This document shows positions 46,712 through 47,179 of a DNA stretch of 64,000 nt, one piece after another. The translations under genes and the position numbers were made by a program. The number at the start of each line of letters is the position of its first letter. Within the stretch, counting starts at the first letter, position 1. Origin of the DNA: Klebsiella phage RCIP0102; the sequence record OR532896.1. One strand, written 5' to 3'. The notes under the pieces are model-generated. The model worked only from the letters and a program-made list of their open reading frames with translations, made no database searches and was not told the origin of the DNA.

Positions 46712-46873
46712 ATTTATCCGGGTTCTTGAAGTACTAACAAGTAGCTTGATGTAGAACACGCTAAAGGTATAATCTTACGAATATAGAGCTTATTCCGTGG
46801 GAACAAACCGCTTCGTCCTCGGCATTATCTTATAGGACTCAAACTCATCTTCAAGAACTGCCTCGTTCTTATT
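46712..46873 (-). ncRNA. About 160-nt non-tRNA insert bounded by an 11-bp inverted repeat (GGTTCTTGAAG ... CTTCAAGAAC); candidate structured RNA
   Basis: Inverted repeat at 46721..46731 and 46848..46857. No ORF. Lies between tRNA-Met and tRNA-Asp. Confidence 0.35.
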
Positions 46874-46949
46874 TGGCGGACCTAACGGAATTCGAATCCG
46901 TGACTCTCGCGTGACAGGCGAGTATTTTAACCGCTGAAACTATAGGTCC
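46874..46949 (-). tRNA. tRNA-Asp (GUC)
   Basis: Acceptor GGACCTA/TAGGTCC, anticodon stem-loop CTCGC CTGTCAC GCGAG, T-arm ACGGA TTCGAAT TCCGT, CCA encoded. Confidence 0.85.
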
Positions 46950-47179
46950 ATAATTCGCTTTCAGAGATACTCTGGCACGATGCCGAAGCAAAGGGGAACA
47001 GGACTCTCATCACCTTGGTACCAGATGAATCTTGTTTAGCACTCTGTTCTAAGATGTATCCCTGAAAGCGAACTTTCAACGCCGTAAGAAATTATAAGCA
47101 CGTAGTTATCGTTGAGGGAACTCGTACACAGGGAATTCTATGCCGACGATTTATCAGAACGTCTTCTGACTTCTTCATT
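46950..47179 (-). ncRNA. About 230-nt non-tRNA insert containing a 14-bp inverted repeat (CGCTTTCAGrGATAC) enclosing about 90 nt with an internal UUCG hairpin; candidate structured RNA
   Basis: Inverted repeat at 46956..46970 and 47057..47071. Internal tgcttcggca hairpin. No ORF. Confidence 0.35.

Follow-up and report, generated by a model that had tools for sequence, protein, structure and literature searches.

Two spacers in the tRNA operon of Klebsiella phage RCIP0102 probably encode three structured RNAs, one of them a likely homolog of T4 rnaD

The tRNA cluster of bacteriophage T4 gives rise to a single primary transcript of ∼1.75 kb, from which eight tRNAs and two further RNAs, species I and II, are produced (PMC2330249). 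In the T4 record these are annotated as rnaC (species 1) and rnaD (species 2), small stable RNAs located directly after tRNA-Arg, and both have been validated as late RNAs by Northern analysis (PMC9697503). In the literature that we searched, we found no function of rnaC or rnaD, no account of structured RNAs beyond these two from the tRNA clusters of phages and, by title or abstract, nothing relevant on transcriptomes of T4-like Klebsiella phages. Here we describe two spacers within the tRNA operon of Klebsiella phage RCIP0102 (sequence record OR532896.1), of which a stretch of 64,000 nt, subsequently called the window, was analyzed. An earlier note on this DNA had presented the spacers, named element 1 and element 2, as structured inserts bounded by inverted repeats, which could be small regulatory RNAs, processing-stable RNAs or inserts resembling miniature inverted-repeat mobile elements (MITEs). 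In the explanation that we consider probable as a whole, these two inserts are three separate conserved and folded non-coding RNA genes: a homolog of T4 rnaD, a module named 2b and element 1 itself. The earlier interpretation is partly supported: the spacers fit processed stable RNAs and not MITE-like inserts, and element 2 consists of two units.

Over the 1.1 kb around the spacers, identity is 99.8% with Raoultella phage Ra_O-2 and with Klebsiella phage W14-1 and 92–97% with many T4-type phages of Klebsiella, among them the Jiaodavirus phages PKO111 and JD18 (Straboviridae/Tevenvirinae). Judged by its sequence, the phage of the window is Jiaodavirus-like and T4-type. ARAGORN and Rfam agree on 16 tRNA genes in the window, all of them on the minus strand, and the RNA sense of the modules was therefore taken to be the minus strand. 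In transcript sense the order is Tyr-Lys-Asn-(230 nt)-Asp-(161 nt)-Met-Gln-(95 nt)-His-Ser-Ile-Trp-Gly-Pro, followed by further sequence. The 230-nt spacer, element 2 (46950..47179, minus strand), extends from tRNA-Asn (GTT; 47180..47264, minus strand; ARAGORN, Rfam tRNA model 49.2 bits), whose encoded CCA end is its 5′ boundary, to tRNA-Asp (GTC; 46874..46949, minus strand; ARAGORN, Rfam). The 161-nt spacer, element 1 (46713..46873, minus strand), extends from tRNA-Asp to tRNA-Met (CAT; 46636..46712, minus strand; ARAGORN), which adjoins it on the 3′ side. These coordinates bear out the earlier claim that both spacers lie exactly between tRNA genes.

The inverted repeats reported for the two spacers were located by pattern search. 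In element 2, CGCTTTCAGRGATAC is found at 46956..46970 and 47056..47070, with no other match in the 64 kb at up to two mismatches; this pair of 15-mers is beyond chance (0.13 matches expected). In element 1, GGTTCTTGAAG at 46721..46731 is complementary to 46849..46859 apart from a mismatched outer base, which leaves a perfect 10-bp repeat; taken alone, the 11-mer is within chance (three matches found, 1.33 expected). Folded as minus-strand RNA, element 2 reaches −70.4 kcal/mol (z = −3.39) with a 19-bp helix that encloses the UUCG hairpin already recognized in it (UGC-UUCG-GCA), and element 1 reaches −40.4 kcal/mol (z = −2.26) with a 12-bp terminal helix. Both z-scores are modest; the decisive evidence is comparative. 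When the window was searched against Rfam, the tRNA genes alone reached the gathering threshold, and inside the spacers MIR173 was the only match at E-values up to 10 (24.2 bits, gathering score 70); it was rejected as a chance match to a long hairpin. The families without a match in the spacers include direct repeats of clustered regularly interspaced short palindromic repeats (CRISPR), hammerhead and other ribozymes, Y RNA-like RNAs and RtT.

The repeat described as bounding element 2 is present and extends to 19 bp, but it bounds only the 3′ half of the spacer; the 5′ half is a different RNA. BLAST searches of phage records showed nucleotides 1–116 of the element 2 transcript to be conserved far past the close relatives, and nucleotides 117–230 were found, at the same sensitivity, in close relatives only. 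In an all-against-all comparison of the inter-tRNA spacers of 20 phages, the first half of the window spacer matched the 106-nt Asn>Asp spacer of Salmonella phage KM16 and a spacer of phage A5-4 (Vequintavirinae), and the A5-4 spacer in turn matched rnaD of T4 and JS98. The link to A5-4 was also recovered by BLAST in the full 2.3-Gb collection (E 3e-6). The resulting multiple alignment is collinear throughout: a 5′ hairpin, AAGUCGUCGG, UUCCCUG, a variable hairpin and ACGGCG.

A covariance model, R3, was built from rnaD of T4 and JS98, copy b of A5-4, copy b of PM2, LC53 and a paralog from Metamorpho; Jiaodavirus, Karamvirus and KM16 sequences were excluded from the training set. In the window R3 has a single match, 47075..47178 on the minus strand (21.3 bits, E 0.0024), over the full length of the model, and elsewhere it recovers all other members of the rnaD family at inter-tRNA positions. 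An nhmmer profile of nine sequences matched the window with an E-value of 5.9e-8, and a profile of T4, JS98 and A5-4 copy b alone placed its top hit at the same site (E 0.052). Used as a single query in nhmmer and blastn, T4 rnaD gave no match in the window: the homology runs via intermediates and profiles only. On these sequence comparisons we regard 47075..47179 (minus strand) with high confidence as a homolog of rnaD, the species 2 RNA of T4.

This RNA starts 1 nt past the CCA of tRNA-Asn on the tRNA strand; the tRNA-operon context and a start beside a tRNA 3′ end are likewise found in T4 and at 26 of 26 R3 matches. It is composed of a P1 hairpin (47153..47170), a long-range P2 helix of CGUCG (47144..47148) with CGGCG (47080..47084), the conserved UUCCCUG (47129..47135) and a P3 hairpin with the nearly invariant loop AGUUCCCUCAACGAUAAC. 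The family structure comprises P1, P2 and a pairing of GUUCCCUGA with UCACAGC around P3; P1 and P2 are present in the window. Both helices covary across the family (P2, for example, is CGUCCA/UGGAUG in the Metamorpho paralog and CGUCC/GGGCG in CR9), and close relatives carry spacers of either 230 or 253 nt, in which the P3 hairpin is exchanged between a short and a long cassette. A resemblance of the conserved GAGUUCCC...GAUAAC in the rnaD loop to the two ends of the type I-E CRISPR repeat was also considered; a mimic of this repeat was rejected, as the repeat hairpin is absent and no CRISPR direct-repeat family matched.

The second half of element 2, module 2b (46950..47079, minus strand), is a structured RNA of ∼130 nt. 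Its long closing helix pairs a 5′ arm that begins with UUCGCUUUCAGGGAUAC (47056..47074, minus strand) with a 3′ arm at 46952..46970 (minus strand), both found by folding, pattern search and covariation, and it encloses a 5′ domain (P2, P3 and a UGCA-type loop) and a 3′ hairpin whose loop is UUCG in the window. The corresponding covariance model, R2, matches the window at 46949..47079 on the minus strand with 75.2 bits (E 9e-16), compared with 16.4 bits for the antisense strand; by this model the window copy is the most divergent lineage of the family, and PM2, which is outside the seed, is detected at 99.6 bits. The alignment of the family, A3, contains 11 distinct sequences and 47 base pairs, 24 of which show compensatory changes, and 95.7% of cells are paired; with slid partners these values were 2–9 pairs and 32–50%, and none of 500 shuffles matched the observed values. 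In the closing helix (helix 1) compensatory changes occur in 7 of the 19 pairs, for example CG/CG in the window, UA/UA in Karamvirus and AU/AU in CC31 and Marfa. Relatives of 2b form the second half of the Karamvirus Asn>Asp spacer and occur in Marfa-type phages; in EcS1 and Virsaitis27, 2b stands free as the Lys>Asn spacer. Element 2 is thus not the single repeat-bounded unit proposed earlier: its two modules are found apart in other phages. Module 2b has no Rfam match and no description in the searched literature, and we present it as a new RNA family.

In all 11 members of the 2b family an upstream GAAAG can pair with CUUUC of the closing helix (5–8 bp, −2.8 to −9.1 kcal/mol). This hairpin and the long covarying closing helix are mutually exclusive, and it could represent a folding intermediate or a switch. 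Loops of the GGA type recognized by CsrA were considered in 2b and dismissed, as they are not kept in the window copy.

Element 1 is an RNA of ∼155 nt with a core of 127 positions. Its 12-bp closing helix is formed by a 5′ arm (GG..GUUCUUGAAG; 46849..46862, minus strand) and a 3′ arm (CUUCAAGAACCC; 46720..46731, minus strand), again identified by folding, covariation and pattern search, and is stacked on an invariant AUGAGU/ACUUGU helix. Further parts are a GUCCU/AGGAC hairpin with a conserved loop (AUAAGAUAAUGCCG in the window phage, UAAGUAAAUGCC in most relatives), a conserved UUGUUCC and a variable inserted hairpin, which occurs in long, short or unrelated versions. Model R1 matches the window at 46713..46868 (minus strand) with 141.1 bits and detects PM2, not part of its seed, at 80.3 bits. 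In alignment A2 (19 distinct sequences, 33 pairs) compensatory changes were observed in 13 pairs, and 99.0% of cells are paired versus 34–46% with slid partners; here, too, 0 of 500 shuffles matched. The closing helix alone exists in three forms, UUGAAG/CUUCAA, AGAGAG/CUCUCU and UAAAGAG/CUCUUUA. The covariation in relatives thus supports the folds of both element 1 and 2b, and invariant G-U pairs together with the large gap between sense and antisense scores place the RNAs on the tRNA strand.

Homologs of element 1 were found in Jiaoda-, Karam-, Moon-, Winkler-, Kagamiyama-, Kanagawa-, Marfa- and Mosugukvirus phages and in metagenomic contigs, with exactly one R1 copy in every genome that carries it. 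As R1 has no match in T4, JS98, TG1, KM16, A5-4, CR9 or CC2, nor at rnaC loci, element 1 is neither rnaC nor rnaD. Like 2b, it is without a match in Rfam and without a description in the searched literature, and represents a new RNA family. A hammerhead-like core noticed by eye (GAUGAG...GAAG) was discarded, since the essential CUGA is absent and Rfam gave no match.

The search of related phage tRNA clusters suggested by the earlier note recovered homologous units module by module. Each module is present once per genome, always inside the tRNA operon at the corresponding place, and the arrangements differ between phages: Asn-[rnaD][2b]-Asp-[E1]-Met in the window, PKO111 and Karamvirus (E1 denoting element 1), Asn-[rnaD][2b][E1]-Met in Marfa, Asn-[rnaD][2b][rnaD'][E1]-Met in PM2, Lys-[2b]-Asn-[E1]-Met in EcS1 and Virsaitis27, Lys-[rnaD][2b]-Asn-[E1]-Met in LC53, Asn-[rnaD]-Asp-Met in KM16, His-[rnaD][E1]-Met in Moon and Arg-[rnaD] in T4 and JS98, with rnaC next in T4. 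Marfa has no tRNA-Asp at the corresponding position, and its three modules are contiguous. Because combinations and tRNA neighbours change in this way, we consider the modules autonomous units; they have been shuffled independently among tRNA neighbours in at least eight Tevenvirinae-type genera.

RNAs of the rnaD family also occur in tRNA clusters of Vequintavirinae, which are not T4-like: in A5-4 at 2479..2581 and 3373..3494 and in Cronobacter phage CR9 at 2458..2559. One of the copies in A5-4, an Escherichia phage, is 86% identical to JS98 rnaD, which points to phage families exchanging tRNA-cluster modules horizontally. Additional rnaD-like paralogs lie beside element 1 or 2b in Klebsiella phage Metamorpho (3415..3498), PM2 (3255..3378) and LC53 (1399..1490); some of them lack the P1 hairpin and have P2 altered by compensatory substitutions such as CGUCCA/UGGAUG.

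The operon of the window holds further RNAs of this kind. Directly after tRNA-Pro lies a homolog of rnaC, the species 1 RNA of T4 (45820..45969, minus strand; nhmmer E 0.0023, alignment), with which a mechanical open reading frame (ORF) at 45642..45851 overlaps. This RNA is tRNA-like, with a fully Watson–Crick 7-bp acceptor-like stem that covaries with that of T4 (CGGUAUG/CAUACCG in the window versus CGAUUCG/CGUUUCG), a T arm CUCGG-UUCGAGG-CCGGG and an encoded 3′ UCCA where T4 has UACA. Element 1 and 2b were also considered as relatives of rnaC and rejected: with nhmmer T4 rnaC hits 45824..45943 instead, and R1 and R2 have no match at rnaC loci at E-values up to 10. The 95-nt Gln>His spacer (46460..46554, minus strand), outside the two spacers discussed above, belongs to a conserved hairpin-closed family of 15 members, including one in the Vequintavirinae phage A5-4; its closing helix AAUAUUCAUUC/GAGUGAAUAUU covaries, with compensatory changes in 7 of 19 pairs.

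Some observations concern the tRNA genes themselves. The tRNA-Met (CAT) next to element 1 (46636..46712) looks initiator-like in the ARAGORN drawing, with a 1:72 mismatch and an anticodon stem that has three G-C pairs at its bottom, and differs in appearance from a second tRNA-Met (CAT) at 44629..44705. Just downstream of tRNA-Thr, a tRNA-like sequence at 42836..42911 (minus strand) scores 20.5 bits with the Rfam tRNA model (threshold 29) and is not called by ARAGORN; a decayed tRNA or an unusual one could account for it. Between tRNA-Leu and tRNA-Thr lies a gap of 121 nt (42996..43116).

Upstream of tRNA-Tyr, the first gene of the operon, two promoter-like motifs were found. TATAAATA (47452..47459, minus strand), 11 nt upstream of the gene, matches the late consensus of T4 and is present seven times on the minus and twice on the plus strand of the window; TGCTTTA (47513..47519, minus strand) resembles a MotA box and is followed by TATTAT 12 nt later. 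Both motifs are kept ahead of the first tRNA gene in PKO111, Metamorpho, EcS1 and CHI14, and by their likeness to the known T4 consensus sequences we take them for putative middle and late promoters. No terminator-like site was seen on the minus strand within the tRNA cluster. By analogy with T4, the modules would be transcribed together with the tRNAs from these promoters and released by RNase P, which would cut at the 5′ end of the tRNA that follows, and by an endonuclease and 3′-trimming past the CCA of the preceding one; the 3′ end of element 1 would be defined by the RNase P cut at the 5′ end of tRNA-Met. Locked by their 5′ and 3′ ends in long terminal helices, the RNAs could then persist as stable species, as in T4. 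Their position as structured non-coding RNAs on the tRNA strand, abutting tRNA ends, agrees with the placement for release by tRNA processing that had been pointed out earlier. Processing-stable RNAs fit best among the explanations then offered; T4 rnaD, the homolog of the 5′ half of element 2, is cut from the T4 tRNA precursor (PMC2330249). The most likely mode of action of the modules would be in trans, by binding proteins or through interaction with the host. This last step is suggested, more weakly, by their anatomy: loops and several helices are conserved, the modules are independent of particular tRNAs, and rnaD has been mutated repeatedly, the same single-nucleotide polymorphism having appeared in all lines of a T4-like phage adapting to a semi-permissive host (PMC12685909).

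Several points weigh against the explanation as three stable, trans-acting RNAs. The rnaD-like copy of the window is, at 21.3 bits, the most divergent member of its family that we found; its UCACAG block is degenerate (UUAUAAU), two pairs in the R3 alignment are non-standard, and, unlike T4 rnaD, it has no 3′ CCA. As no tRNA separates them, the rnaD-like RNA and 2b may stay together as one 230-nt RNA. The alignments consist of 11–19 related sequences, and shared ancestry may feed the excess over the shuffles, a source that is disfavoured by the slid-partner control. Element 1 is nearly always attached to the same tRNA-Met, which would also fit a role as a cis leader. That discrete stable RNAs accumulate is a prediction for the modules of the window, by analogy with T4, where it has been demonstrated, and the trans-acting function is purely a conjecture; even for T4 rnaC and rnaD no role is known (PMC3014915).

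An origin of the spacers as MITE-like elements inserted between tRNA genes, as offered in the earlier note, is extremely improbable. Although terminal inverted repeats are present in each spacer and neither contains a credible ORF, all phage genomes and contigs examined carry exactly one copy of each module, always in the tRNA operon and at the corresponding position, and the repeat arms are found nowhere else in the 64-kb window. Neither target-site duplications nor flanking direct repeats are visible in the sequence, and the arms evolve by compensatory base changes, as expected of RNA helices. In 185,579 bacterial and archaeal genomes (one genome per species) the element 1 pattern had no match at all; a looser 2b pattern matched seven times, in unrelated taxa and at about the number estimated for chance, and model R2 rejected all seven as 2b RNAs. 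One 2b-pattern match in IMG/VR (L037) was likewise spurious. Very unlikely, too, is the reading of the spacers as decayed tRNA genes or as small protein-coding genes, the latter being the annotation in many GenBank relatives. Mechanical ORFs of 30–50 amino acids do overlap the region, several records annotate a ‘hypothetical protein’ there, and the separate rnaC-like RNA of the same operon is partly tRNA-like. But the tRNA model has no match in either spacer at E-values up to 10, in line with the earlier statement that neither holds a tRNA fold, and the ORFs, which begin with TTG and overlap tRNA-Asp, lack conservation: the earlier claim that ORFs are absent does not hold literally, but none is credible as a gene. 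Moreover, swap or loss of a hairpin cassette produces the length variants, which are 23 nt (230 versus 253) and 33 nt (161 versus 128) apart, and substitutions in the helices are compensatory, not synonymous. Many relatives in GenBank carry such coding sequences across the RNA spacers, some of them without any tRNA annotation, and these are probably mis-annotations.

The main rival is that the modules are cis-acting architecture of the tRNA precursor, serving as entry sites for RNase III or RNase E or as folding insulators, and that the excised pieces are by-products without a function of their own; we consider this unlikely. RNase III participates in the processing of the T4 tRNA precursor, and the terminal helices are long enough to resemble its substrates (19 bp in 2b, 12 + 6 bp in element 1). 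Element 1 lies directly 5′ of the same tRNA-Met in ∼16 of the 18 phages examined, and the alternative 5′ hairpin in each 2b member could act during transcription or processing. The anatomy of the modules is not that of processing signals dedicated to one tRNA. They change their tRNA neighbours and are dispensable for them: in KM16 only 6 nt, and no element 1, lie between tRNA-Asp and tRNA-Met, and 2b is absent from CHI14. Conservation and covariation reach several internal helices and loops, beyond what a cleavable stem would need, and the homologous T4 RNAs accumulate as stable species (PMC9697503). The explanation as processed stable RNAs can be extended, tentatively, to a modular toolkit of at least five structured RNAs in T4-type phages (rnaC, rnaD, 2b, element 1 and the Gln>His RNA) that serve as decoys or sponges for host factors, candidate targets being RNA- or tRNA-targeting defence nucleases and RNA chaperones. 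We regard this extension as doubtful; the only hint is the convergent rnaD mutation in host adaptation of a T4-like phage (PMC12685909). If it were true, the tRNA operon would unite translation and counter-defence in one locus, with element 1 and 2b as new classes of anti-host RNA.

For the species 1 and 2 RNAs of T4, known since the 1970s, there is still no function. The locus described here shows that they are not an oddity of T4: conserved and covarying RNA modules form a larger set in the tRNA operons of T4-type phages of Klebsiella, Enterobacter, Citrobacter, Serratia, Erwinia and relatives, and rnaD reaches the unrelated Vequintavirinae. Comparative structures, natural presence/absence variants and module boundaries are thereby available for the design of experiments, and the ‘hypothetical protein’ labels that many GenBank records give to these RNAs are a point for annotation.

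Among the known systems T4 rnaD, a small stable RNA of 119 nt, is closest. It shares with 47075..47179 the P1 hairpin, AAGUCGUCGG, UUCCCUG, ACGGCG and the covarying P2, as well as the start right after a tRNA CCA on the strand of the tRNAs; it differs in its long P3, which is a short cassette with a conserved 18-nt loop in the window, and in being followed by rnaC instead of 2b. T4 rnaC, a tRNA-like stable RNA of 139 nt, is a gene of the same kind, a stable RNA co-transcribed with phage tRNAs, but neither of the two elements is rnaC: the window has its own homolog at 45820..45969, and in EcS1 and the Karamvirus phages rnaC occurs alongside element 1, each at a position of its own. In E. coli, 3′ETS-leuZ, a small-RNA sponge, and the RtT RNA of the tyrT operon are freed from tRNA precursors by the nucleases that process the tRNAs and then act in trans. 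The phage modules have no sequence or Rfam relationship to them (RtT was unmatched in the Rfam search) and are larger, multi-helix RNAs conserved as autonomous units. MITEs are likewise short, non-coding and flanked by terminal inverted repeats, whereas the modules are single-copy at a corresponding operon position, lack target-site duplications and have repeats that covary as RNA helices. The rnaD module thus belongs to a family that has been known since the 1970s; element 1 and 2b are of the same known kind, as families new in sequence and structure.

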